Below are positions 5,003-21,262 of a stretch of 21,262 bases of DNA, in pieces. Position numbers and translations under genes: made by a program. The stretch lies in IMG/VR virus record IMGVR_UViG_2703718838_000007; one strand, 5' to 3'. This stretch comes from a virus. Lineage: Duplodnaviria > Heunggongvirae > Uroviricota > Caudoviricetes. Every line of letters begins with the position of its first letter. The first letter of the stretch is position 1. The notes below the pieces were generated by a model. The model was not told where the DNA came from, made no database searches, and worked only from the letters and a program-made list of their open reading frames with translations.

Positions 5003-5482
5003 TCACGACTCAGAAACGGAGCGCGTACCGGATAGCTGCGGCAATGGTTGAACATCGACAGGAATATCTTTCGGCCAGCGATATCCAGATACCCGCGATG
5101 TAGAAAACGCACGGATATTCACCGCATCACTCTGATTTCCACCCAGTACCATCAAATCGCCATTTGCCTGCTGACCAACAACAAAGCCAACATGACCGCC
5201 GCCGTCACGGCTGAATACCACCACACAACCATATGCAGGTTTATCCAGCTTCACCCCCCAATTAAGATAAGATGCGGCTGATTCAAAGCGGCTTGATGTG
5301 ATACCTGAACGTTCCAGCACTCCCCCAACGTAAGCCGCACACCACGGCGTTTCGTCGTCCTTAATACCGCCTCGTTTTATATCCTTCCAGAACTGTAAAA
5401 TTAGCGGGTTATGCTCTGGCCCTTTAATTTCCTTTTCACCAATATATTTACGACCTTCAACAATCCATGATGGTTCTTTCAT
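5003..5482 (-). CDS. Endolysin candidate of the CHAP / NlpC-P60-like peptidase type (TIGR02594-like, from memory), not a P2 gpK-type lysozyme
   Basis: 159 aa. Conserved Cys (TPWCAAYVGG) and His (GGHVGFVVG), plus LGGNQSDAV and SGYRWP motifs recalled from that family. Sits between holin and spanins. Confidence 0.6.
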   Translation of the reverse strand: MKEPSWIVEGRKYIGEKEIKGPEHNPLILQFWKDIKRGGIKDDETPWCAAYVGGVLERSGITSSRFESAASYLNWGVKLDKPAYGCVVVFSRDGGGHVGFVVGQQANGDLMVLGGNQSDAVNIRAFSTSRVSGYRWPKDIPVDVQPLPQLSGTRSVSES

Positions 5483-5546
5483 GGCTGCATTCCTCTTTGA
5501 CAGTGAATAAAACCGCCAACCAGCAAATCATTTCAGGTGATGGGAT

Positions 5547-5876
5547 TTATTCCCCGCCCTTCATTCCGCCGATACGGTTTTCGATAAACCCAGTAACTTT
5601 GTTGCGGACTTTATCCGCTCCCATAAATCCGATGGAGGCGCCCACGAACGTTACTGCGTTGGACGGAAGCCCCAGATATTCCAGCGAACCGGCCACAGCA
5701 AGCGTGACAATCCCACATACCAGCGATCCGGTGGCGGTTTTAAGCAAAGACTGCCCATCGTAAAGGCTCATTAGCGCCGAAATACTCAGCGCCGCACCAG
5801 CCGCAAACAGTGTCGGCAGATAAGTAGCGATCCATTTCATTGTTTGTTCGAGTAATCCCGGTGGTGTGTCGTGCAT
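5547..5876 (-). CDS. Holin candidate
   Basis: ATG at 5876 preceded by GGGGGAGGG, 11 nt after the X stop. Protein has two or three hydrophobic segments and a charged C-terminus. A shorter start (MKW, 5840) is possible. Confidence 0.55.
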   Translation of the reverse strand: MHDTPPGLLEQTMKWIATYLPTLFAAGAALSISALMSLYDGQSLLKTATGSLVCGIVTLAVAGSLEYLGLPSNAVTFVGASIGFMGADKVRNKVTGFIENRIGGMKGGE

Positions 5877-5886
5877 ACCCTCCCCC

Positions 5887-6087
5887 TTAATCCCATAGCT
5901 GCACGGTTTCCCGCTGGGCTGGCGGCTGGATCTCTGGCAGGTAGACAATCTGCCCGGCCTGCAACTCAGTGGCGGCGGAAATGCCCTTATTGGCATCGAT
6001 CACCGCCTCGGTAACGCCTGCTGTTCTGCCGTAATAGCGCCAGCAAAGCAGGTCGATCGTGTCGTTTTGCTGCGCCTGAACGTTCAT
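5887..6087 (-). CDS. X: Tail protein gpX-like
   Basis: 66 aa (MNVQAQQNDTIDLLCWRYYG...), size and position as P2 gpX. Confidence 0.75.
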   Translation of the reverse strand: MNVQAQQNDTIDLLCWRYYGRTAGVTEAVIDANKGISAATELQAGQIVYLPEIQPPAQRETVQLWD

Positions 6088-9655: not shown

Positions 9656-11368
9656 ATGAATACAGCCGAAGACCTCAGCACAAAAGCCAAAAGCCTCTAC
9701 TGGCAGGCGTTTAGCATCACTCAGATTTCTAAGGAAATCGGGGTGAGCATTAACACGATCTACAGTTGGCGCCGCCGCTACGAATGGGATAAAGCCACCC
9801 CCATGCAGCGGGTGCAGGATCGCACACACGTTCGTTACCTGCGCCTGGTGGAAAAGGACGACAAAACCCCGAAGGACTTCAAAGAAATTGACCTGCTGGC
9901 GCGCCAGCTTGACCGCTTTGAACGGCATGAGCGACGCGACCAGGAGAAAGAGAAGAAGGCAAAGACCCCGAAAAACCATTTCACCGAAGAACAGATAACC
10001 CAGCTTCGCGCCCTGGTCTTTGATTCGCTATACGAGCATCAAAAACGCTGGTTCAAACAGTGGAACCGGCGTAACCGCTTTATACTCAAATCGCGCCAGA
10101 TTGGTGCCACCTGGTACTTTGCCCGCGAAGCGCTGTTGCGTGCGCTGGAAACCGGAAATAATCAGATATTCCTGTCAGCCAGCCGCGCCCAGGCGTTCCA
10201 GTTCAAGCGGTTCATTCAGAAGCTGGCAAGGGAAATAGGAGTAGAACTTAAGGGCGGTGATGCCATTGAGTTAAGCAACGGTGCGATCCTGTATTTTCTC
10301 GGCACCTCCGCCGCGACGGCCCAGAGCTACACCGGCGATCTGTACCTTGATGAAGCCTTCTGGATCAGTAATTTCATCAAACTGCGCTCAGTGGCCGCAG
10401 GCATGGCGACACAAAAAGGACTGCGCCGCACCTACTTTTCGACGCCTTCCAGTGAAGAACATGAAGCCTATCCTTTCTGGACTGGCGATCAGTTCAATAA
10501 AAACCGCCGCCGCTCCGATCGGGTGGATATCGACACCAGTTATAAGGCACTGAAAAACGGCAAGCTATGCGGGGATAACATCTGGCGCCAGATAGTCACG
10601 CTGGAAGACGCCGTGAAGCTCGGCTTCGATCTGGTTGATACCGATGAAATCCGTAACGAAAACTCCCCCGACGAATACGCCAACCTGTACGGCTGCATGT
10701 TCGTTAAAGCCGGGGAACGCGCCTTCGACTACAACGCAATTCTGGGCTGCGGCGTTGATGGCTACATGCCGGACGCGTGGCCGGACTGGAACCCGTTTGC
10801 ACCCCGCCCGCTGGGTAATCGCCCTGTCTGGGTTAGCTATGACCCCAACGGCAGCAGCGGCAAAGGCGACAGCGCCGGGCTGGTTGTGCTGGCCCCGCCA
10901 GCCGTGCCGGGTGGTAAGTTCCGCGCGGTAGAGCGCCACCAGTTACGCGGCATGGAGTACGAAGAGCAGGCCAATTTTATTAAAGAGATCACCACCCGCT
11001 ACAACGTGCAGCACATTGCTATCGACGGCACGGGGATCGGCGATGCGGTTTATCAACTGGTGATCAAGTTCTTCCCGCAGGCGGTTAAATACAACTATTC
11101 ACCGGTTCTTAAGCGGTCGATGGTGCTCAAAATGTTGATGGTCATTCGCGCCGGGCGCTTTGAGTTCGACGCCGGAATGATGGATCTCGCACAGTCGTTT
11201 ATGACCGTGCGTAAAGTCACCGCTGGCGGCGTTATTACTTACCAGTCAGATCGCGCCCGTGGCAGCAATCACGGCGATCTGGCATGGGCAACTATGCAGG
11301 GCATTTACAACGAACCGATCGGCGCGGAAGTGACCGGCGATAACGGCAGTTTTGTGGAGGAGTTTTAA
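9656..11368 (+). CDS. P: Terminase large subunit (ATPase) gpP-like
   Basis: 570 aa, ATG verified at 9656. Diverges from O; size and position match P2 gpP. Confidence 0.85.
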   Translation: MNTAEDLSTKAKSLYWQAFSITQISKEIGVSINTIYSWRRRYEWDKATPMQRVQDRTHVRYLRLVEKDDKTPKDFKEIDLLARQLDRFERHERRDQEKEKKAKTPKNHFTEEQITQLRALVFDSLYEHQKRWFKQWNRRNRFILKSRQIGATWYFAREALLRALETGNNQIFLSASRAQAFQFKRFIQKLAREIGVELKGGDAIELSNGAILYFLGTSAATAQSYTGDLYLDEAFWISNFIKLRSVAAGMATQKGLRRTYFSTPSSEEHEAYPFWTGDQFNKNRRRSDRVDIDTSYKALKNGKLCGDNIWRQIVTLEDAVKLGFDLVDTDEIRNENSPDEYANLYGCMFVKAGERAFDYNAILGCGVDGYMPDAWPDWNPFAPRPLGNRPVWVSYDPNGSSGKGDSAGLVVLAPPAVPGGKFRAVERHQLRGMEYEEQANFIKEITTRYNVQHIAIDGTGIGDAVYQLVIKFFPQAVKYNYSPVLKRSMVLKMLMVIRAGRFEFDAGMMDLAQSFMTVRKVTAGGVITYQSDRARGSNHGDLAWATMQGIYNEPIGAEVTGDNGSFVEEF

Positions 11369-12418
11369 TTGAGCGGCAAAAAGAAATTCAGGGCGCCAAC
11401 TGCTGCGCCAGCCAGCACGGCCAGCAACGCAGCCACCCCGCTGGAAAGCGTGGAATCTTTCAGCTTTGGCGACCCGATCGCAGTCAACGATCGCGCGTCT
11501 CTTATGGAGTGCCTCGAATGCCATAACAATGGCCGCTGGTATGAACCACCGATCAGCCCCTACGGGCTTGCGCGCATGTTCGACGTTGCCGCCTATCACC
11601 AGTCACCGCTGATATTTAAACGCAATGTTATCGCCAGTTGCTACATACCACACCCGCTATTGACCCGGCAGGAGTTCACCGCCTGGGTGCAGGATTATTT
11701 AATTTTCGGTAACTGTTACATGGAATGCCGCCGCAACCGACTCGGCCAGCCGATTGAACTGCGGCACAGCCAGGCGAAATATACGCGGCGCGGCATAGAC
11801 CCGGCTCAATTCTGGTTTGTTCCGCGCTACGTTGACGATCACGCGTTCGAACCGGGCAGCGTCTGCCAGATCAAGAACCCCAGCCCGCACCAGGAGATCT
11901 ACGGCGCGCCGGAATATCTGGCCGCGCTACAAAGCGCCATGCTGAACGGTGAAGCAACGGTGTTCCGCCGCAACTACTACATTAACGGCAGTCATGCGGG
12001 TGTGATCGTCTACCTCACTGACCCGGTGGCGAATAATAACGATGTGGAAAAGCTTAAGAAGTCGCTGAAAGATGCACGCGGAAACGGTGCTTTTAAAAAC
12101 CTGTTTGTCTACGCGGCGGGCGGGAAAAAAGACGGCCTGCAAATTATGCCGTTCAGCCAGGTGGCGGCTAAGGATGAGTTTACCGGCATCAAAGACGCCA
12201 CCCGCGACGACCTGTTAGCCGCGCACCGCGTGCCGCCCGTTCTGATGGGGGTAATGCCGAATAACTCCGGTGGCTTCGGCGACGTAGAGAAAGCGGCGAA
12301 GGTGTTTTCCATCAACGAACTGGCCCCGATACAAGAAAGCCTGAAAGAGTTAAACGACTGGCTGGGGATCGACGTGGTGCGCTTCAACCCTTACGCACTG
12401 TTGCAGGCAGCGATCTGA
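11369..12418 (+). CDS. Q: Portal protein gpQ-like
   Basis: 349 aa. TTG start directly after the P stop, preceded by GGAGGAG; last structural gene before cos, as in P2. Confidence 0.8.
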   Translation: MSGKKKFRAPTAAPASTASNAATPLESVESFSFGDPIAVNDRASLMECLECHNNGRWYEPPISPYGLARMFDVAAYHQSPLIFKRNVIASCYIPHPLLTRQEFTAWVQDYLIFGNCYMECRRNRLGQPIELRHSQAKYTRRGIDPAQFWFVPRYVDDHAFEPGSVCQIKNPSPHQEIYGAPEYLAALQSAMLNGEATVFRRNYYINGSHAGVIVYLTDPVANNNDVEKLKKSLKDARGNGAFKNLFVYAAGGKKDGLQIMPFSQVAAKDEFTGIKDATRDDLLAAHRVPPVLMGVMPNNSGGFGDVEKAAKVFSINELAPIQESLKELNDWLGIDVVRFNPYALLQAAI

Positions 12419-12627: not shown

Positions 12628-12647
12628 GCTCATTCCCCCGCCTCGCC
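12628..12647 (-). other. cos (cohesive end) site
   Basis: Minus strand reads GGCGAGGCGGGGGAATGAG. The first 12 nt equal the start of the P2 cohesive end as I recall it (GGCGAGGCGGGGAAAGCAC). Location between Q and the tin/old-equivalent locus is as in P2. Confidence 0.55.
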
Positions 12648-12782
12648 CGCACACAGAAACCCCGCTTTTTTGTGCAAATGTGCAAACCACCGGAAGGCCC
12701 GCCCCGTCTGGCCTTAGTTAAGAAAATGACTTTCGAAAAAATTGTGCATTCTCATGCAAGTTTATGCGCCATTTTTGCAGGT

Positions 12783-12807
12783 AAAAAAATCCCGCCGAAG
12801 CGGGATT
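12783..12807 (-). terminator. Intrinsic terminator ending the accessory cassette
   Basis: On the minus strand, a GAATCCCGC-TTCG-GCGGGATT hairpin followed by seven T, 14 nt after the stop of the 12822..13934 gene. Confidence 0.65.
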
Positions 12808-12821
12808 CATTGGTTATCGAA

Positions 12822-13934
12822 TTATGCAGATTTCATTCGATAAGCAGATAAAGAAACAACATTTTCGGTAGCGATTTCTGGGGCAAAATCTAACGAATTA
12901 TCGTTCGCTAACTCCGCTAACATAGCTGGAGTAATACACAAACGCTTGGCTAATGACTCAACATCAACTGACAGATCCGTTAAGAGAAACTTCATTGCCT
13001 TATGAAATAGCTCTGGCTTTTCATTAGGAATCAAATAATCTTCTTTTTCATCAATGGCTTCCCCCTTGCGCTTTAAACCGAAGAATGCCGTTTTATATTG
13101 GGCATCGGTTAAAAGAGAAAGCTGATGTGCTCTATAAATTGTTGCTGCCTTACTAACTTTCCACGTCAGTTTAAACTGACTTAGCCCCTGCCAGTCGATA
13201 CGACCGCCAATTGGGCGAGGAAAATATTTTGCCATCGCCGATCGGGGTAGAAGCAATGCTGATGCAAAACGGTTAGCTTGAGATTCAGTTACCCGATCCC
13301 CCGTTGAAATACCTTCGTGCAAAATCAAATGTGCAACTTCGTGAGCAATATCAAAACGCTGACGGCAAGGCGATTTTTTAGCCGTATTTCTTACAATGAA
13401 TGGCCGACTTAAAGGAACAGAAAGCGCATCCACATCATCAGAGACAGAATCGAAAGAAGTAACAAATGCTCCCAGCTTTTCAGCAAGACGAGTCATGTTG
13501 TCAATCGGCCCAAAACCTAATCCCCAATCAGCCCGGCATTTCTCAGCGGCTCTTTCTATGTCCTCTTGAGTATTTACTCTCAGTTCAGGAAATCTTACTG
13601 GCGGTAAATTCAAGTACTCATCAAAAACTTCAATGAGACGGCGATACAATTCAGCTTTAGCGAGCGTCGCCCACTTAGTAGCCATACGTGTTGAACTACG
13701 CTTGCGGAAGTGAACGATCTCTTCATTCACTGGAGATTGCTCTTGTACTGCGAAAAATTCAGGCGTGACCAGCAATACGGCAGCTAATTTATTCGCAAGC
13801 TCAGGAGTAGGCACAGCCGAGCCGGATTCCAGCCGCTGAATGTACTGGCGGGTCTTATCGACCCGCTCAGCTACTTGCTCCAGTGATAACTCGTGATACA
13901 GACGAGCCAATCGCAAATTAGAACCGTTAAACAC
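12822..13934 (-). CDS. Fused HTH_XRE / M78 (ImmA/IrrE, COG2856-type) zinc metallopeptidase with a ~100-aa C-terminal extension
   Basis: 370 aa. HTH-like LSLEQVAERVDKTRQYIQRLESG at residues ~15-40; HExxH zinc motif in DIAHEVAHLILHEG near residue 200. GTG start at 13934 with AGGTGA upstream (no in-frame ATG retains the HTH). Confidence 0.7.
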   Translation of the reverse strand: MFNGSNLRLARLYHELSLEQVAERVDKTRQYIQRLESGSAVPTPELANKLAAVLLVTPEFFAVQEQSPVNEEIVHFRKRSSTRMATKWATLAKAELYRRLIEVFDEYLNLPPVRFPELRVNTQEDIERAAEKCRADWGLGFGPIDNMTRLAEKLGAFVTSFDSVSDDVDALSVPLSRPFIVRNTAKKSPCRQRFDIAHEVAHLILHEGISTGDRVTESQANRFASALLLPRSAMAKYFPRPIGGRIDWQGLSQFKLTWKVSKAATIYRAHQLSLLTDAQYKTAFFGLKRKGEAIDEKEDYLIPNEKPELFHKAMKFLLTDLSVDVESLAKRLCITPAMLAELANDNSLDFAPEIATENVVSLSAYRMKSA

Positions 13935-13947
13935 TTTTCACCTACTA

Positions 13948-14541
13948 TTATCCGTTATCGCTTTTCTTTTCCTTTTCAGGAACAGAAGCGCTGATATCAT
14001 CCAGCTCAATCTTAACAGGTGCTGGCGGGGTATCGTCTATAGAATGCAGCACAGTTACCCGTTCTTCGCCATACGTCCATAAAGAGAGCATTTCTTCCAG
14101 CGCATTATAACCCGCAAAATGCACTCGCCCACCTTCACCTTCGAACTCTGGTTTCTCTACAACGAAGCGCCAAATCGTAGGGATTGTATCTTCTGATGCG
14201 AATAACTGATCAACACTATTCTTTCGGAAGAAGTTAGCCTTTTTCGGATTAGTCGGATCATCGCTAAAAGAACGGATTGGGATACCGCCAATAGTGATTG
14301 TGTAATCGTTATTGGGATTAGAAAGCCCTAACCAGTCGTATTTTTTTGACATGCACAGTTTGACGATTCGATTCTTCTGGCGTCCAAAAGTGCATGTTGC
14401 GCGGGTATAATTATCATCAAGCGAAGAAGACAAAAGCTCATGTGTGTCTTCCTGCACTTTAAGGAGTGCCTCCGCAATGATAGATAAGCGTTCTTCGGTT
14501 AACTGCGGATGAAACGTCCAAGGTAATGGGTAATTTTGCAT
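13948..14541 (-). CDS. Hypothetical protein, unrecognised partner of the HTH-peptidase
   Basis: 197 aa, ATG at 14541 with AAAGGAAAG upstream. No transmembrane segment or catalytic motif recognisable by eye. Stop lies 13 nt before the next start; region is AT-richer than flanks by eye. Confidence 0.6.
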   Translation of the reverse strand: MQNYPLPWTFHPQLTEERLSIIAEALLKVQEDTHELLSSSLDDNYTRATCTFGRQKNRIVKLCMSKKYDWLGLSNPNNDYTITIGGIPIRSFSDDPTNPKKANFFRKNSVDQLFASEDTIPTIWRFVVEKPEFEGEGGRVHFAGYNALEEMLSLWTYGEERVTVLHSIDDTPPAPVKIELDDISASVPEKEKKSDNG

Positions 14542-14559
14542 CGGGTCACTTTCCTTTCA

Positions 14560-14618
14560 GTGCAAAAATCAAACTTTGTCAACCGGGATAATGGTGCAGA
14601 ATTTTGATTTTGTCAACT
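14560..14618 (-). promoter_or_regulatory. Promoter with two imperfect ~25-bp direct repeats (operator-like) upstream of the 197-aa gene
   Basis: Minus-strand repeats GTTGACAAA...TGCAC at 14594-14618 and 14560-14584. The distal one gives -35 TTGACA, 17-bp spacer, -10 CATTAT. Lies in the 75-bp gap after the A stop. Confidence 0.4.
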
Positions 14619-16977
14619 AACCCCTGTTAATTTTTACAGCCACTTTCCAACGATTGAGAAGCTCGTCAGATTTTTTCTTAACTGCCATTTTTTCAGATGC
14701 CAATTTATCTACCCCAGATGCTGCGCGGTTGCTGGAAACTAACCGCCCATTTTGCACGGTCAAAACGAGATCGCCGCACGCCACTGACGCACCGGCCATC
14801 ATCGATCTGACCATTCCGGCGCTGGCATCAATCCCACGCAGCGCCAGCAGTTCACTGATCTGCTGCTCTTTCACGGATAGCCCGGCCCTCTCTTCCCGTT
14901 CCGGTGGCCGTTTTTTACGCTTACTTCGCACATCGTTACTAAGCCGCTGCGCCAGTTCTCGCTTTTCCTGCCGTGAAAGCGCATCAAAATTCACCGTCTC
15001 GCCCACTTCGTGATCGGCATGTTCAAGACCGTCTGCACCTGTCGCGGGATCCCGCGTACAGTTATTGACAGAACTCCGAGGGGCGGCGCTGCCGCCTGAA
15101 AAACCAACGTCAACGGCCACACCGTCAGCGCTCTGGCGCTTCGGCACGATTTTGTATTGAGTGGTGCGGGTGAAGATCAAAGAGTCATTGCCCGTAATCG
15201 GGCAGTAAATACCAGTGATTCGCTGGACGTTATCACCGTAGGCGTTGCCGTTTTCAGTGGTTTCATAGTTCAGACGGATGCGCAGCTTATCGCGCTCAAC
15301 CAACGGGCCACCCTGGGCTAATACGTAGTTATCCCATTCGCCACCGTTAGCGGCCTGCCGGGCGGTTTCCAGTTCAGGGTGTAACACCAGTTCGCGATCG
15401 CCCAGGCGGCGAAGTTCCCGATATACCGTGACCGGCGCACCGCCGATCTGCTGAAACTGGCGAATAGCCCAGCGCGATGCCCACGCACTAACGCGGAGTG
15501 ACATTTCTTTCAGGTCTTCCCCAGTTTCGTCGTCCTTCTCACCATCGAGCGCGAAGCCGTCGATATTCTTCGAAATGTATTTCGCTATGTAGCCGGTTGC
15601 GCTGCCGTGGGCATCGTCGATCGGCACAACCTGAAAGCGGTTTTCCTGCGCTCCCGGTTCGTTGCCGTCTTCTTTCAGGGCATATTTACGGAAGATTTCG
15701 CGCGCCTGCTCGACGCATTCCGGGCGCATAAAAAGAAGTAAATGCCAGTGGGGTGTTGCATCGTGGTGCGGTTCGACCACGCGGAAACCAAAGACGCGGA
15801 TCCCTTTTCTCTTCCAAGCTGCGCGGGTTCTCGCCCAGACTTTGCAAAGATATTGCTGCGTCTCGCGCGGCGACGCGCCACAGTATTTATTATTGCGGCG
15901 CCCGTTATGCTGCATGGAGTGGTAACGGGAAGGTGCTGTCAGCGTGTAGAAATCACCGGCCAACCCTTCCAGCTTCGCCAGATCTTCAAAGCCGCGCATT
16001 CTCGTCATGAGTTCGCGGCGACGGTTGGCCGGATTGGCAACACTGCCAGCGACTTTATCGATCAGTGAAATGCGCTCGCCCGTGTCCTGGTCTTCCAGTT
16101 CCATAGCCTTGAGGTATTCACGGTTAGCCTTTTTCTGGGCCAGCCATTCCGTAAGGCACGGGGCGCTACTGTATGGGGAAGATTTTTTCTGGACGTATCC
16201 CGCTGCGATCATCAAATGCTCACGCCACCGGGCATGGATACGGCGCAGGCGGTTTAACCACCACTGCGGTGACTCAAGACGGAGAACCGCGCGTAACGCG
16301 TCCTCCGCTTCAAGTTCTTCATTGCAATATGCTGTCCAACCTGGGATCGGCGTTTTCATATGCACCACCAGCGACGCAATACGGCCATAGCCAGAAAGCG
16401 CCGCGAACTCAGGATCTCCGGTGCGTGCCAATTGGTGATCGGACTCGCGTATAAACTCGCTCGTAAAGATATCGGCAAGCGTATAAGCCAGTCTTTTTAA
16501 CTCTTTCTTCCCTGCCCAGAGCATACGGAACAGCTGATCGCGGATTGGCAGCAGAATGCCGGGCATCACAGTGTCAGGCTGGTAAACACTGTTCACGCTA
16601 TCAATTCGCGTTAATACGTGGCGCTCAAAGGTATTAACCAGCCAGTGATCTGCTGCTTTGCGGTCTTTCGCGTCCAGTGCATCCAGCTTCGCGGCAAAGT
16701 GGCGGCGGACATACTGCGGAAGTGAAGCCAGACGGCGACGCAGCAGCTTGCCGCGCTCCGGCTTTTCGTCTTCCGCTACCAGTTCACTGAACGGAATATG
16801 CTTACGCGTGCCGTCCGGCGTGAGATAGTCGAAACCATCCAGCCCCGGCGCTACATCAACGCCAATCGGCTGGTATGGTTTGTTCCCGCCATAAGCGTAA
16901 GGGATAGCATTGTCAGTGCTACCCGGATACGGTGGAGGTGGAGAAGGGGCGCGACGGCCACGGGTTTCCGTGGTCAT
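14617..16977 (-). CDS. A: Rolling-circle replication initiator (endonuclease) gpA-like
   Basis: 786 aa. HUH-like PHWHLLLF and a paired-tyrosine YIAKYISK motif; size and position match P2 gpA. Confidence 0.85.
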   Translation of the reverse strand: MTTETRGRRAPSPPPPYPGSTDNAIPYAYGGNKPYQPIGVDVAPGLDGFDYLTPDGTRKHIPFSELVAEDEKPERGKLLRRRLASLPQYVRRHFAAKLDALDAKDRKAADHWLVNTFERHVLTRIDSVNSVYQPDTVMPGILLPIRDQLFRMLWAGKKELKRLAYTLADIFTSEFIRESDHQLARTGDPEFAALSGYGRIASLVVHMKTPIPGWTAYCNEELEAEDALRAVLRLESPQWWLNRLRRIHARWREHLMIAAGYVQKKSSPYSSAPCLTEWLAQKKANREYLKAMELEDQDTGERISLIDKVAGSVANPANRRRELMTRMRGFEDLAKLEGLAGDFYTLTAPSRYHSMQHNGRRNNKYCGASPRETQQYLCKVWARTRAAWKRKGIRVFGFRVVEPHHDATPHWHLLLFMRPECVEQAREIFRKYALKEDGNEPGAQENRFQVVPIDDAHGSATGYIAKYISKNIDGFALDGEKDDETGEDLKEMSLRVSAWASRWAIRQFQQIGGAPVTVYRELRRLGDRELVLHPELETARQAANGGEWDNYVLAQGGPLVERDKLRIRLNYETTENGNAYGDNVQRITGIYCPITGNDSLIFTRTTQYKIVPKRQSADGVAVDVGFSGGSAAPRSSVNNCTRDPATGADGLEHADHEVGETVNFDALSRQEKRELAQRLSNDVRSKRKKRPPEREERAGLSVKEQQISELLALRGIDASAGMVRSMMAGASVACGDLVLTVQNGRLVSSNRAASGVDKLASEKMAVKKKSDELLNRWKVAVKINRG

Positions 16978-17153
16978 ATTTGAACTACATCCCCTACTTT
17001 AACGGCTTGGGCTTCCTCTTCTGATTTCTTCAGAATTGTGGTTATTGACTCCCTTCCATAAGCTGTTACTTTCGCCTCAACCAACCAATACGGCGCAATC
17101 TCGCCACGACTCACGCTTATGATTTCAACGATCCAGGCGTCTATAAGATTCAT
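16974..17153 (-). CDS. Small hypothetical protein (59 aa), not in the ORF track
   Basis: Hand-translated MNLIDAWIVEIISVSRGEIAPYWLVEAKVTAYGRESITTILKKSEEEAQAVKVGDVVQI. Its ATG overlaps the methyltransferase stop (TAATG) and its TGA overlaps the A start (ATGA). Confidence 0.5.
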   Translation of the reverse strand: MNLIDAWIVEIISVSRGEIAPYWLVEAKVTAYGRESITTILKKSEEEAQAVKVGDVVQI

Positions 17154-18125: not shown

Positions 18126-18338
18126 TTACAGGACTCCGTAAGGGGAAGAAGGAACAACCGGACGCTGCAACGCCGTGGTAAGGCGCTGGCGCATGTCGTC
18201 GATAAAGCAGGAAACAGAGGGATCGTCAGAAGAAAGGGTTAACTCACCATCGCGGCGGGTTTTAATCGTCAACCCTTCATGCTCAACAGCAGGTAAGAGA
18301 ACGTGCAGGATGAAGTTATATTGATCGCGTTTAGTCAT
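18126..18338 (-). CDS. Small hypothetical early protein (70 aa from the ATG at 18338)
   Basis: ATG at 18338 preceded by TGAGG; stop one nt before the methyltransferase start. An alternative ATG at 18371 is possible. Confidence 0.4.
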   Translation of the reverse strand: MTKRDQYNFILHVLLPAVEHEGLTIKTRRDGELTLSSDDPSVSCFIDDMRQRLTTALQRPVVPSSPYGVL

Positions 18339-18369
18339 GATTCGAAGCCTCAGGATGAGTGAAAGCGCC

Positions 18370-18385
18370 ATCACTTAATTAAGTG
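18370..18385. repeat. Perfect 16-bp palindrome TCACTTAATTAAGTGA
   Basis: Read directly. Sits in an AT-rich gap between two small early ORFs, with a second TTAATTAA at 18408-18415. Confidence 0.6.
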
Positions 18386-18429
18386 ACGACAGTGAAGACT
18401 GTTTTTTAATTAATATTTAACTGGCGTTG

Positions 18430-19080: not shown

Positions 19081-19362
19081 TCAAAGACCGATCCACAACA
19101 ACCACGCGTCGCGCTGTTCTCTCGGACGGTTGTAATAGGCGTCACGCATTGCGCGGTTGAACTCAGGAATATAGATCCAGTTCTCAGCGCGGGCGCCCAG
19201 GCTTTCCGGGTTCTTCCACGGGATGATCGGCAACTTACCGTCTTCAATCATGCTCTTAACCGTGGCGGGCTTCTTACCGATCAATTCGGCAAATTTTGGG
19301 TATGGAACCGCGTCAACAGCGTGACGCACTTCAATGAACCCCTCTAACTCTTTGTCTGTCAT
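19081..19362 (-). CDS. cox: Cox-like excisionase / lytic-switch regulator
   Basis: 93 aa with PYPKFAELIGKKPATVKSMIEDGKLPII...AYYNRPREQRDAWLLWIGL, matching the pattern I recall for P2 Cox. GAGGTAA RBS. Confidence 0.8.
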   Translation of the reverse strand: MTDKELEGFIEVRHAVDAVPYPKFAELIGKKPATVKSMIEDGKLPIIPWKNPESLGARAENWIYIPEFNRAMRDAYYNRPREQRDAWLLWIGL

Positions 19363-19452
19363 AGAATTACCTCTAATTGATTGTTGCCGGGATTTTTTCT
19401 CACGCCCCGGCGCGTGTTACCCTTGTAGCTCTCACACTAATAGGGCAAAAAA

Positions 19453-19692
19453 ATGGACGAATTTAAGGGCGTTTTTCCTCTACCGATTACTGACCTTAAA
19501 GGTCTTAAATTCGACGCCAAGACAGGCGAATTACAACTCGATGTAGTGCTTCCGCACCCTGCTGGTGATATTCCTCTGCGATTGCAGTTTTCAGCAGGGG
19601 TAACACAATCACTTGCATTGAACTTAGCGAGGACACACAAATTTCTGGATGAGCAACTCGAAGGAACACCAGTGACAAACGTTCTGCAATAA
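19453..19692 (+). CDS. Hypothetical 79-aa protein in the cox-C intergenic region, co-oriented with C and int
   Basis: Protein-like translation; AT-richer than neighbours by eye; weak RBS. Competes with an antisense ORF (19505..19789) that looks less protein-like. Confidence 0.35.
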   Translation: MDEFKGVFPLPITDLKGLKFDAKTGELQLDVVLPHPAGDIPLRLQFSAGVTQSLALNLARTHKFLDEQLEGTPVTNVLQ

Positions 19693-19891
19693 CCCGCATA
19701 AATCCACGTTTTTGACTCTCCTTAATCTGGCGGGATCTCATATGTAAGGCTCCGCCCGATTCTTCCTCTCCCTCATGTTTCATAACCATTTGTGCTAATC
19801 TCCCCGTTGGCGCTAGGCGCTTATTTCGGCTTGTAACTGCTTATATTGGCGGTTGCTCATGGTAGAGATTACCACCCTTAAGGAGAATGTT

Positions 19892-20212
19892 ATGGTAGAG
19901 ATCCCTACCCCGTCAAGCAGCGTGGGTGAAAAAATCAGAGCTATCAGGGATGCGGAGGGGTTAACAAGGCAGCAATTCTTTGAATTAACAGGAATACCTG
20001 CTGGCACGCAGAAGTATTACGAGACAGGAAGAGTGGAGAGTATTGGTAGCGATATCTTGCTTAAGATCACTCAGCATTCACGTTTCGCAAAATACACGCT
20101 CTGGCTTATGACAGATAAGACCGCCCCTCAAGCTGGTCAAATCGCACCGGCCCTCGCACACATTGGGCCAGAGTCAACTGGATCAGACCGCTCCGAGAAA
20201 CAAACTGGTTAA
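19892..20212 (+). CDS. C: Immunity repressor, P2 C-like
   Basis: ATG at 19892 with AAGGAG 6 nt upstream. C-terminal region (FAKYTLWLMTDKTAPQAGQIAPALAH) resembles P2 C as I recall it. The track's upstream start at 19853 has no RBS. Confidence 0.8.
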   Translation: MVEIPTPSSSVGEKIRAIRDAEGLTRQQFFELTGIPAGTQKYYETGRVESIGSDILLKITQHSRFAKYTLWLMTDKTAPQAGQIAPALAHIGPESTGSDRSEKQTG

Positions 20213-20281: not shown

Positions 20282-21262
20282 ATGTCGATTAAGAAGCTCG
20301 AAGGTGGTCAATATGAAGTGGACGTATGGCCGCGCGGACGTAACGGAAAACGTATCCGCAGGCGATTTGAGAAGAAACAAGAGGCAGTTCTTTTTGAGCG
20401 TTATGTATTAGCCAACGCCGACAAAAAAGAATGGCTGGGCGCGAGCGTTGACCGCCGCACCTTAAGCGAGTTGTTAGATACCTGGTGGCTGCTGTATGGA
20501 CAGACTCAGGAAAATGGCGAGATTGAAAAGCGGCACCTGAATAAAACAATCAGGGCGCTGGGTGATCCAGCCGTTAACCGACTGAACAAACGAATGATTG
20601 CACAGCACCGAAGCCAACGGCTGGAAGACGGTATCAGCGCAGCAACGATCAACCGGGATATTTACCGTTTGTCCGGGATGTTCAGCACGTTGATAAAGCT
20701 GGAAGAGTTCAGAAAGGAAAACCCCTGCAAGGGTCTGGAACCACTGAAAGAAGCGCCGCCAGCTATGACCTATCTCGCCAAATCAGAGATCAGCAGATTG
20801 CTGGATACTCTGACTGGCGATGATCGACGCGTAGCACTGCTATGCCTCAGCACTGGCGCTCGTTGGGGTGAAGGCAGCACACTGCGAGGTGAGCAGGTTA
20901 ACCACGGGCGCGTAACGTTCCTTAAGACCAAAAACGGGAAAAAGCGTACGGTTCCGATTTCGGAAGAACTGGAAAAAGAGATCAAGACCAGCGACACCGG
21001 GCCACTGTTCAAAGTTGACTATGAAAACTTCTGCGAACAGCTCAGACAGGTTAAGCCCGATTTACCACGCGGGCAGGCCACGCACGTGCTTCGGCATACG
21101 TTCGCAAGCTGGTTCATGATGAACGGTGGGAACATTATTGCGTTACAGCAAATTCTTGGGCACGCCAGCATACAACAGACGATGGTTTATGCTCACCTTG
21201 CACCTGATTACCTGCAACACGCAGTAACGTTAAACCCTCTCGGCGGTGGTCTGGCGGTGTGA
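20282..21262 (+). CDS. int: Tyrosine integrase, P2 Int-like
   Basis: 326 aa, GGAGGG RBS. C-terminal HVLRHTFAS...MVYAHLAP contains the His/Arg/Tyr catalytic pattern of tyrosine recombinases. Stop is the last codon of the window. Confidence 0.9.
   Translation: MSIKKLEGGQYEVDVWPRGRNGKRIRRRFEKKQEAVLFERYVLANADKKEWLGASVDRRTLSELLDTWWLLYGQTQENGEIEKRHLNKTIRALGDPAVNRLNKRMIAQHRSQRLEDGISAATINRDIYRLSGMFSTLIKLEEFRKENPCKGLEPLKEAPPAMTYLAKSEISRLLDTLTGDDRRVALLCLSTGARWGEGSTLRGEQVNHGRVTFLKTKNGKKRTVPISEELEKEIKTSDTGPLFKVDYENFCEQLRQVKPDLPRGQATHVLRHTFASWFMMNGGNIIALQQILGHASIQQTMVYAHLAPDYLQHAVTLNPLGGGLAV

Follow-up and report, generated by a model that had tools for sequence, protein, structure and literature searches.

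Gene content and boundaries of the cassette

The 21,262-nucleotide stretch of DNA analysed here, referred to throughout as the window, carries two minus-strand genes in the interval that runs from replication gene A to the cos site. They code for proteins of 197 and 370 amino acids, are separated by a 13-nt gap, and are named rmrT and rmrA after the protein families that they match (Table 1). The GC content of the cassette was 43.9%, against 55.8% for gene A and 56.7% for gene Q, and GC3 was 0.37–0.42 for the cassette genes compared with 0.59–0.70 for the flanking genes. Comparison with a copy of the module in Klebsiella oxytoca gave dN/dS values of 0.04 and 0.08 for the two cassette genes. 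Both are under purifying selection and are therefore real genes, not chance open reading frames.

The cos cohesive end was positioned using the genome records of phages SEN4 and SEN5, since base 1 of these records aligns with position 12647 of the window; a P2 cos sequence had no match at up to three mismatches. In blastn comparisons, homology to SEN5 was limited to positions 12648–12787, which are 80% identical to the final 142 nt of the SEN5 genome, and to positions 14705–16836. The K. oxytoca copy, on the other hand, is shared with the window over positions 12784–14730. SEN5 holds four other genes at the same site. The cassette is cargo of the gpA-cos (old/tin) hotspot of a P2/186-like prophage, and its boundaries are new here. 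An earlier note on this DNA had described two co-oriented genes with their own promoter-like element and terminator, AT-richer than their surroundings and placed at the tin/old swap site of P2; the open reading frame coordinates, a promoter scan, the terminator hairpin, the base composition and the different cargo of SEN5 all bore this out.

The gpA-cos-gpQ locus is a recognised hotspot for defence systems (Rousset et al. 2022; Vassallo et al. 2022), and the supplement of the former study already lists a RosmerTA arrangement in the P2 hotspot. The main text of a 2026 preprint on P2/P4 hotspots makes no mention of Rosmer.

Table 1 Features of the cassette and its surroundings (window coordinates)
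Feature	Position	Strand	Description
Portal gene Q	11369..12418	+	Far side of cos from the cassette
cos cohesive end	12629..12647	-	GGCGAGGCGGGGGAATGAG on the minus strand
Conserved cos-proximal segment	12648..12787	.	Between cos and cassette; outside the swapped cargo
Intrinsic terminator hairpin	12787..12808	-	GAATCCCGC-TTCG-GCGGGATTT and T-run; 9-bp stem; 14 nt past rmrA stop codon
Exchangeable cassette	12788..14704	-	Extent relative to phage SEN5; takes in last ~90 nt of gene A
rmrA	12822..13934	-	370 aa, GTG start; presumed antitoxin and autorepressor
Intergenic spacer	13935..13947	-	13 nt; holds AGGTG Shine-Dalgarno of rmrA
rmrT	13948..14541	-	197 aa, ATG start; presumed toxin/effector; PADLOC RmrT model PDLC03929, PHROG 5786
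Operator-like motif copy 2	14561..14583	-	GTTGACAAAGTTTGATTTTTGCA; 34 bp downstream of copy 1
-10 hexamer CATTAT	14588..14593	-	17 nt past TTGACA; promoter scan 10/12 matches
Promoter-like TTGACA-17-CATTAT	14616..14588	-	Directly beyond gene A stop codon
Operator-like motif copy 1	14595..14617	-	GTTGACAAAATCAAAATTCTGCA; its TTGACA (14616-14611) doubles as -35 hexamer
Gene A (replication endonuclease, Phage_GPA)	14617..16977	-	786 aa; upstream border of the hotspot

Promoter and operator-like motif

The promoter-like element upstream of rmrT is overlapped by two copies of an operator-like motif, the second of which spans the region of the transcription start and 5′ UTR. The motif is not a clean palindrome; the window has two occurrences of its pattern GTTGACA-N12-TGCA, where chance would give 0.02. 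The comparison was extended to 61 related loci from Enterobacterales, Betaproteobacteria and Xanthomonadales, in 58 of which an RmrA homologue directly follows rmrT, the three exceptions ending at a contig edge. Of these loci, 57 have the motif in the corresponding place ahead of rmrT, and in 41 loci, as well as in 42 distinct promoter sequences, the form TTGAC(A/G)-N12-(T/G)GCA is doubled over the promoter with a spacing of 33–34 bp. An equivalent cAnnAT hexamer follows motif copy 1 in related loci, and the shared promoter/operator-like element lies upstream of rmrT only. This double 22-bp operator-like motif, overlapping the promoter and conserved from Enterobacterales to Betaproteobacteria, is new here.

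The HTH domain of RmrA most likely binds the two putative 22-bp sites, which would amount to autoregulation. Across the spacer with its AGGTG, rmrT and rmrA are likely to be translationally coupled, and the two genes would form one operon, transcribed from its own sigma-70 promoter to its own terminator.

The HTH-peptidase protein RmrA

RmrA matched the PADLOC model PDLC03943 over nearly its whole length (E = 9.1e-206, positions 1–369 of 370), and 13 further PADLOC RmrA models matched it at E ≤ 6e-33. Two Pfam domains scored above their gathering cut-offs, namely HTH_3 (residues 7–61, E = 2.5e-13) and Peptidase_M78 (residues 151–269, E = 4e-17). The HEVAH motif occupies residues 198–202 and gives the zinc-peptidase site of the M78/ImmA-IrrE type, H198-E199-x-x-H202 with E217. 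Residues H198, E199, H202, E217, N221 and F223 were invariant among 56 RmrA homologues, and the peptidase domain is predicted to be catalytically intact. An invariant H75-F76-R77 stands in the linker, and a C-terminal region follows the peptidase.

At the domain level RmrA is similar to capP (E = 1e-18) and capH (E = 1e-7), and its union of HTH and M78 domains is also that of ImmR/ImmA. One reading of this likeness would make RmrA a damage-responsive switch of the ImmR/ImmA or CapH/CapP kind, acting on prophage induction or on other genes, with RmrT as a regulatory accessory and the HFR linker motif as a possible self-cleavage site. We consider such a role very improbable. The module is not part of the immunity region, and the repressor and Cox genes of the phage itself are at 19081–20212; the fixed pair is also found in non-phage contexts, and in homologous modules the first gene is lethal. 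The sole conserved targets that can be proposed for the HTH domain lie in the promoter of the module itself, and no CBASS genes or other regulated operon adjoin the cassette, rmrT being the one other gene of the unit.

The candidate toxin RmrT

RmrT matched the PADLOC model PDLC03929 (E = 1.6e-94, positions 1–196 of 198). It is an acidic, soluble protein of ~22 kDa (pI 5.0, GRAVY −0.58) in which no hydrophobic segment was found, the highest 19-residue Kyte-Doolittle mean being 0.51. An exhaustive profile search gathered an RmrT family of 478 clusters at 50% identity. Domain fusions that might hint at function were sought across these clusters, nearly all of which proved to be stand-alone proteins of ~200 amino acids to which no known fold could be assigned, and distant members of the family matched PDLC03929 only. 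No relative of RmrT was detectable by structure or by sequence, and this absence of detectable relatives is among what is new here.

Two enzymatic activities were considered and set aside. Weak matches to NaeI, SwaI, AddB and ThaI had raised the idea of a PD-(D/E)xK nuclease, which was rejected because the conserved D…(D/E)xK motif is missing. An ADP-ribosyltransferase, suggested by the ExE-like stretch PEFEGEG, was dropped because this stretch is not conserved outside Enterobacterales.

With both proteins matched full-length by RosmerTA models, the pairing of an HTH-peptidase with the 197-aa protein is one already described as RosmerTA (Millman et al. 2022) and hence known. The earlier note had tentatively named this system, had read an XRE-type HTH and an HEVAH peptidase motif in the second protein, and had suggested that the genes form a module for defence, abortive infection or a toxin-antitoxin-like function in which the 197-aa protein is the effector. 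The profile searches recovered both domains and the system named, and the published homologues of the pair, discussed below, are a toxin and its antidote.

Homologues of the same subtype

The pair E101_02645/E101_02644 reported in a preprint by Rousset et al. 2021 belongs to the same RmrT/RmrA subtype as the pair in the window. A copy in E. coli TW10598 codes for an RmrT and an RmrA that share 62% and 77% identity, respectively, with those of the window, and this RmrA is WP_000481765.1, which is also the accession cited for the antidote E101_02644. The TW10598 copy also shares with the window the protein sizes, the gene order, the double operator-like motif and T46 of RmrT, a residue that falls in the near-invariant motif DDNYT46R. 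Rousset et al. 2021 found that knock-down of clpP was lethal in the presence of the E101_02645/E101_02644 module, that this lethality was suppressed by loss of the prophage or by a T46S change in the toxin, and that repression of the first gene of the module relieved toxicity; when the module was moved to K-12, clpP became essential. These ClpP data were obtained with a homologue of 62% identity, carried by a lambdoid prophage, and are compatible with several models.

The same authors gave identities of 33% and 42% between E101_02645/E101_02644 and Vmi480/Vmi470 of the Vibrio mimicus island MGIVmi1. Vmi480, a 198-aa protein encoded by the first gene, is lethal alone, and Vmi470, a 362-aa HTH-Zn-peptidase, neutralises it and is harmless by itself (Luo et al. 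2015). A tblastn search against plasmids and phages recovered no Vibrio copy and no pLP vectors, so that for the link from the window to Vmi480 we rely on the identities given by Rousset et al. 2021.

These genetics bear on which of the two proteins is toxic. In PD-lambda-2 the Xre-peptidase fusion is toxic alone and is rescued by an upstream HigB-like protein, so that the HTH-peptidase of the window might likewise be the toxin and the small upstream protein its antidote. That the roles are reversed in this way seems scarcely credible, given that in the E101 module toxicity is relieved by repressing the first gene, which is also where the suppressor mutation falls, that Vmi480 is lethal alone whereas Vmi470 is harmless, and that a ΔrmrA mutant of the verified RosmerTA system was unobtainable (Millman et al. 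2022). By analogy with these homologues, RmrT would be the toxic partner, RmrA would neutralise it, and the balance between them would depend on ClpP.

Distribution and the case for defence

At least 24 contigs code for a protein identical to RmrT, and in every one the gene sits between those for GPA and the portal protein of a 186-like prophage. Diverged copies occur at the gpA-cos site of E. coli P2-like prophages, some variants with extra genes. The same module is also carried on plasmids, and elsewhere it lies beside partition genes and a Hok/Gef remnant.

These last settings would suit a pair that serves only for addiction, stabilising a prophage, island or plasmid by post-segregational killing and excluding no phages. 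The earliest descriptions of the homologues, carried by a mobilisable genomic island and by a prophage, indeed treated them as toxin-antitoxin pairs and nothing more, and in the sources searched we found no anti-phage assay of the PDLC03929 subtype of RmrT. We nevertheless judge addiction as the only function to be unlikely, since other RosmerTA systems with a homologous RmrA protect against phages and defence genes are strongly over-represented among the cargo of the gpA-cos site; addiction and defence are, moreover, not mutually exclusive. The cassette belongs to the RosmerTA family and is very probably a two-gene anti-phage module of the toxin-antitoxin type, carried as cargo of the gpA-cos hotspot. 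From what is published on other RosmerTA subtypes, the cassette of the window may be expected to act against phages.

Proposed mode of action

The following mechanism is proposed for RosmerTA in the window; what the peptidase does, what sets the system off and what RmrT acts on are inferences. RmrA would be the antidote, its XRE-type HTH keeping expression low from the two sites that overlap the promoter, and host ClpP-dependent proteolysis and the M78 zinc-peptidase domain of RmrA would jointly keep RmrT harmless. An infecting phage would upset this balance, possibly through inactivation or self-cleavage of RmrA, through blocked resynthesis of RmrA or through interference with Clp proteolysis, and RmrT would be freed. 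The freed RmrT would then arrest growth while the phage cycle is still incomplete, an abortive infection that would shield the lysogens as a population as well as the prophage that they carry.

A bolder version, which we regard as doubtful, holds that RmrT is a toxin of new fold controlled by two proteases in series, being first processed or tagged by the M78 domain of RmrA and then removed by host ClpXP or ClpAP, so that the module guards Clp proteolysis or the integrity of RmrA. Such a guard module would fire when a phage inhibits or saturates the Clp pathway, and if true the two-protease guard would be a mechanism undescribed for any toxin-antitoxin or defence system. As an annotation the assignment is useful but ordinary, as PADLOC or DefenseFinder would flag RosmerTA automatically; the double operator-like motif, the invariant HFR linker and T46 offer handles on how RosmerTA senses infection.

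Comparison with known systems

The verified RosmerTA system described by Millman et al. 2022, for which phage defence was shown, is that of E. coli OLC-716. It shares with the window a toxin-first two-gene operon and an RmrA (31% identity, E = 3e-39) with N-terminal XRE HTH and M78 Zn-peptidase domains. Its RmrT, in contrast, belongs to another sequence family, matching PDLC03935 and also PDLC03932 but not the PDLC03929 of the window protein, and the measured phage defence is that of its own subtype. Homology between the two RmrT proteins was sought and set aside, as BLASTP (E = 11) and three hhalign profile comparisons with the window RmrT family (probability 0.1–1%, E = 0.05–0.6) were all non-significant. 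The AlphaFold models of the window and OLC-716 proteins (pLDDT 74.6 and 78.7) present secondary-structure elements in the same order, beginning with two long helices and three strands, which a long loop connects to three more strands and a disordered tail, and the weak, non-significant profile alignment runs in register with them.

The RosmerTA of Gordonia phage Kita (RmrT_D5), which defends against phage (Ernits et al. 2023), resembles the window pair in being phage-borne and in having an ImmA-type RmrA. Its RmrT, however, is membrane-targeted and depolarising, unlike the window RmrT with its lack of a hydrophobic segment. Both phage-tested systems, OLC-716 and Kita, use RmrT proteins that appear unrelated to that of the window. 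The same-subtype pairs differ from it in location, E101_02645/E101_02644 being in a lambdoid prophage and Vmi480/Vmi470 on a mobilisable island, while the window pair sits in the P2 hotspot.

ImmR/ImmA, DdrO/IrrE and CapH/CapP likewise combine an XRE-type HTH with a COG2856/M78 metallopeptidase bearing an HExxH…E site. There the two domains are separate proteins acting on a separate regulon, whereas in the window they are fused in the 370-aa RmrA and paired with a toxin.

As regards the locus, RosmerTA is, to judge from the text of Rousset et al. 2022 and Vassallo et al. 2022, outside the hotspot systems tested in those studies, and the P2 proteins Old (an ATPase-TOPRIM nuclease) and Tin are unrelated to the window cargo. 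The old/tin locus of P2 and the cassette described here are nevertheless alike in being AT-richer, self-contained cargo that lies between gene A and cos and is swapped in related phages.

Family identity of the cassette

Pfam analysis of the 370-aa RmrA protein revealed an HTH_3 domain (residues 7–61) followed by a Peptidase_M78 domain (residues 151–269), the architecture that the earlier note had read from the sequence, and no Pfam domain was found in the 197-aa RmrT protein. PADLOC assigned both proteins, over their full length, to the two-gene RosmerTA family: model PDLC03929 matched RmrT (E 1.6e-94) and model PDLC03943 matched RmrA (E 9e-206), each end to end. The defence or toxin–antitoxin-like module proposed in the earlier note was thereby borne out, its tentative mention of the RosmerTA arrangement proved right, and the pairing, which it had left open as known or new, was found to be already described (Millman et al. 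2022). The rmrT product belongs to phrog_5786 (unknown function) and the rmrA product to phrog_2439; the NCBIfam spr1629 repressor/antitoxin model also matched RmrA, but below the model cut-off. The system type, the subtype profile models, the toxin–antitoxin behaviour and the presence in the P2 hotspot, the cargo site between gene A and cos, are all previously recorded.

Genes, borders and prophage setting

The window includes part of a P2/186-like prophage, which runs in the reverse direction to the P2 map. The two cassette genes were confirmed as co-oriented open reading frames 13 nt apart, with the predicted promoter-like element and terminator of their own, and as AT-richer than the flanking core genes: the GC content of the cassette is 43.9%, compared with 55.8% in A and 56.7% in Q, and GC3 is 0.37–0.42, compared with 0.59–0.70. 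Both genes are real and under selection, as dN/dS is 0.04 for rmrT and 0.08 for rmrA in comparison with a Klebsiella oxytoca copy of 95% identity.

Positions of the cassette, its signals and the neighbouring core genes
Feature	Position	Strand	Remark
Terminase P	9656-11368	+	first in listed gene order
Portal Q	11369-12418	+	after P, before cos
Terminator	12808..12787	-	strong hairpin and T-run, after rmrA
rmrA	12822..13934	-	ORF, 370 aa; GTG start behind AGGTG Shine-Dalgarno
rmrT	13948..14541	-	ORF, 197 aa
Motif copy 2	14561-14583	-	match to 22-bp motif
Motif copy 1	14595-14617	-	match to 22-bp motif
Promoter match TTGACA-17-CATTAT	starts one base past A stop codon	-	upstream of rmrT
Replication gene A	14617-16977	-	beyond the two cassette genes

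The cohesive end was placed at 12629–12647 (GGCGAGGCGGGGGAATGAG on the minus strand) because base 1 of the genome records of Salmonella phages SEN4 and SEN5 aligns at 12647. What we take to be the P2 cos differs from it at four positions, so that a search with that sequence allowing 3 mismatches gave no match. SEN5 is homologous to the window over 12648–12787 (80% identity across the 142 nt that adjoin cos) and again over 14705–16836 (gene A, 93.5%), and carries four other genes between these segments, a DNA methyltransferase among them. The A-to-cos interval is therefore a swap site, as the earlier note stated for P2-like prophages, and the swapped unit extends from 12788 to 14704 and takes in the final ~90 nt of A. 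In the K. oxytoca copy 12784–14730 is shared at 94.8%, with unrelated sequence in place of the A body, which points to recombination in the A 3' end and in the cos-proximal segment.

The two genes do not always have one history, since at intermediate distances rmrT has diverged far more than rmrA: dN is about 0.30 for rmrT versus 0.075 for rmrA, with dS saturated and about 1.1, respectively. This divergence suggests that alleles have been shuffled or that the toxin evolves faster. Between the window and five related loci (L001, L002, L007, L009 and L062), amino-acid identity is about 62% for rmrT versus 88% for rmrA.

Beyond A, the gene order is Dam methylase, Fil, DUF4761, Cox, a repressor-like HTH gene and integrase, and the end of the window coincides with the integrase stop codon (region 20282–21262). 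In the related assemblies L064–L069 the prophage adjoins cpxP/cpxR-like genes (LTXXQ protein, response regulator). Prophages that are 98% identical (L064/L067 versus L065/L066/L068/L069) differ at two more small sites, window 16974–17153 and 18126–18400: the Dam–A interval holds a 59-aa ORF (the window state) or a DUF4406 gene, and the Fil–Dam interval holds short hypothetical ORFs or a TerB-domain gene with DUF3927. Both look like additional cargo swap sites. The lysis region (5003–5996) is also AT-richer (GC about 0.46–0.50); P2 gene K encodes a lysozyme, and here a CHAP-domain protein gene (5003–5482) lies instead beside a family-3 holin gene (5547–5996).

A double operator-like motif

A 22-bp motif with the consensus GGTTGAC(G/A)AA-N8-A-N-TTGCAC and the core pattern TTGAC(A/G)-N12-(T/G)GCA occurs twice upstream of rmrT at a spacing of 33–34 bp (2 matches in the window versus 0.02 expected by chance). 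At least one copy was present in 57 of 61 loci and both in 41; the motif keeps its position from E. coli to Rhodocyclaceae (Enterobacterales to Betaproteobacteria) amid unrelated surrounding DNA. The -35 hexamer is supplied by the TTGAC of copy 1, and the -10 hexamer lies between the copies; copy 2 spans the transcript start, reaching the ribosome-binding site in many betaproteobacterial loci. On the simplest reading, the two copies are probably an operator pair of the RmrA HTH, that is, an autorepression element. This double regulatory element is newly described here.

Distribution and published genetics of the subtype

An RmrA homologue directly followed rmrT in 58 of the 61 loci, and contig ends truncate the other three. 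The set spans Enterobacterales, Betaproteobacteria, Stenotrophomonas and Methylomonas. P2-like settings were found among these loci only in E. coli and K. oxytoca, so that the pair moves as a unit among prophages, islands and plasmids. RmrT proteins 99.5% identical to that of the window were also seen on two records filed as plasmids, NZ_CP093490.1 (K. pneumoniae, 339 kb) and CP022659.1 (Salmonella, 70 kb). Clustered at 90% identity, the RmrT family forms 565 groups, and at 50% it forms 478; its members are nearly all stand-alone proteins of about 200 aa, no informative domain fusion was found among the clusters, and distant members match PDLC03929 only.

The subtype is present in 29 of 5426 complete E. 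coli genomes, 6 copies lying in the P2 hotspot and 23 in a lambdoid prophage. The latter, the commonest E. coli copy (many ETEC), sits outside P2-like phage, in a Rac/Qin-like prophage; in E. coli TW10598 (NZ_CP035846.1 630643–632368) it adjoins a Hok/Gef remnant and a ParA gene. E. coli XYEH3783 has an RmrT homologue in its P2 hotspot; this homologue is included in the hotspot catalogue of Rousset et al. 2022 and, per the text of that paper, is absent from the systems tested.

The TW10598 proteins, RmrT WP_001179382.1 and RmrA WP_000481765.1, are 62% and 77% identical to those of the window. The same RmrA accession is the antidote E101_02644 of the Rousset et al. 2021 preprint, with WP_001179380.1 as toxin. 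There, knock-down of clpP was lethal, the defect was relieved when the toxin gene was repressed, and suppression arose through loss of the prophage or a T46S change in the toxin; moved into K-12, the module made clpP essential unless the toxin was T46S. The preprint gives the E101 pair 33%/42% identity to Vibrio mimicus Vmi480/Vmi470, of which the 198-aa first gene product is lethal in E. coli and is neutralised by the 362-aa HTH/Zn-peptidase; of the two genes, only vmi470 resisted deletion on its own. A reversal of toxin and antidote roles is less likely, as these published genetics assign toxicity to the first gene.

The best-supported reading is that the cassette is a RosmerTA toxin–antitoxin-type abortive-infection module. 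A role in addiction only is less likely, given that the cassette occupies a defence hotspot and that other RosmerTA systems defend against phages. The same holds for an ImmR/ImmA-like switch controlling the prophage, the pair lying outside the immunity region and travelling into non-phage contexts.

Conserved residues and proposed mechanism

In 56 RmrA sequences the metal and catalytic site (H198, E199, H202, E217, N221, F223) is invariant, as are C190, R191 and R193, and the final ~30 residues are not conserved. The tripeptide H75-F76-R77 in the HTH–peptidase linker (window about 13704–13712), invariant in the same homologues, is a candidate self-cleavage or substrate-mimic site. RmrT is acidic (pI 5.0) and hydrophilic, and its hydropathy profile showed no membrane segment. 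The structure prediction and search suggested in the earlier note yielded a model, with long helices predicted at 16–36 and 44–64, then six strands and a disordered tail, and no significant structural match. T46 falls within the motif DDNYT46RxxxTFGRQ; across 43 sequences D42, R54 and Q55 are invariant and Y45, R47, T51, F52 and G53 at least 90% conserved. No column is invariant in 80 diverse members, where positions at least 75% conserved are mostly hydrophobic, plus R18, D42, R54, R90, D95 and R125.

We propose that RmrA would repress its own operon via the two operators and, by analogy with its homologues, neutralise RmrT; proteolysis probably forms part of its function, since the peptidase site is under strict selection. 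Judging from the 62%-identical toxin, ClpP would be required to keep RmrT harmless. Classical type II systems work the other way round, with the antitoxin broken down by a host protease; the Clp substrate may hence be RmrT itself or an RmrT product made by RmrA.

Comparison with the verified RosmerTA system

Millman et al. 2022 gave RosmerTA its name and verified the system of E. coli OLC-716 (RmrT 239 aa, RmrA 370 aa), which defended E. coli against phages at 37 °C; a ΔrmrA mutant was not obtainable. OLC-716 RmrA is 31% identical to that of the window (E 3e-39) and has S-F-R in place of H-F-R, whereas its RmrT falls in another PADLOC model (PDLC03935 rather than PDLC03929), and neither BLASTP nor three profile–profile comparisons found it significantly similar to the window RmrT. 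AlphaFold models of both RmrT families place predicted secondary-structure elements in the same order, with a weak profile alignment in register, in agreement with a remark by Ernits et al. (Kita paper, 2023).
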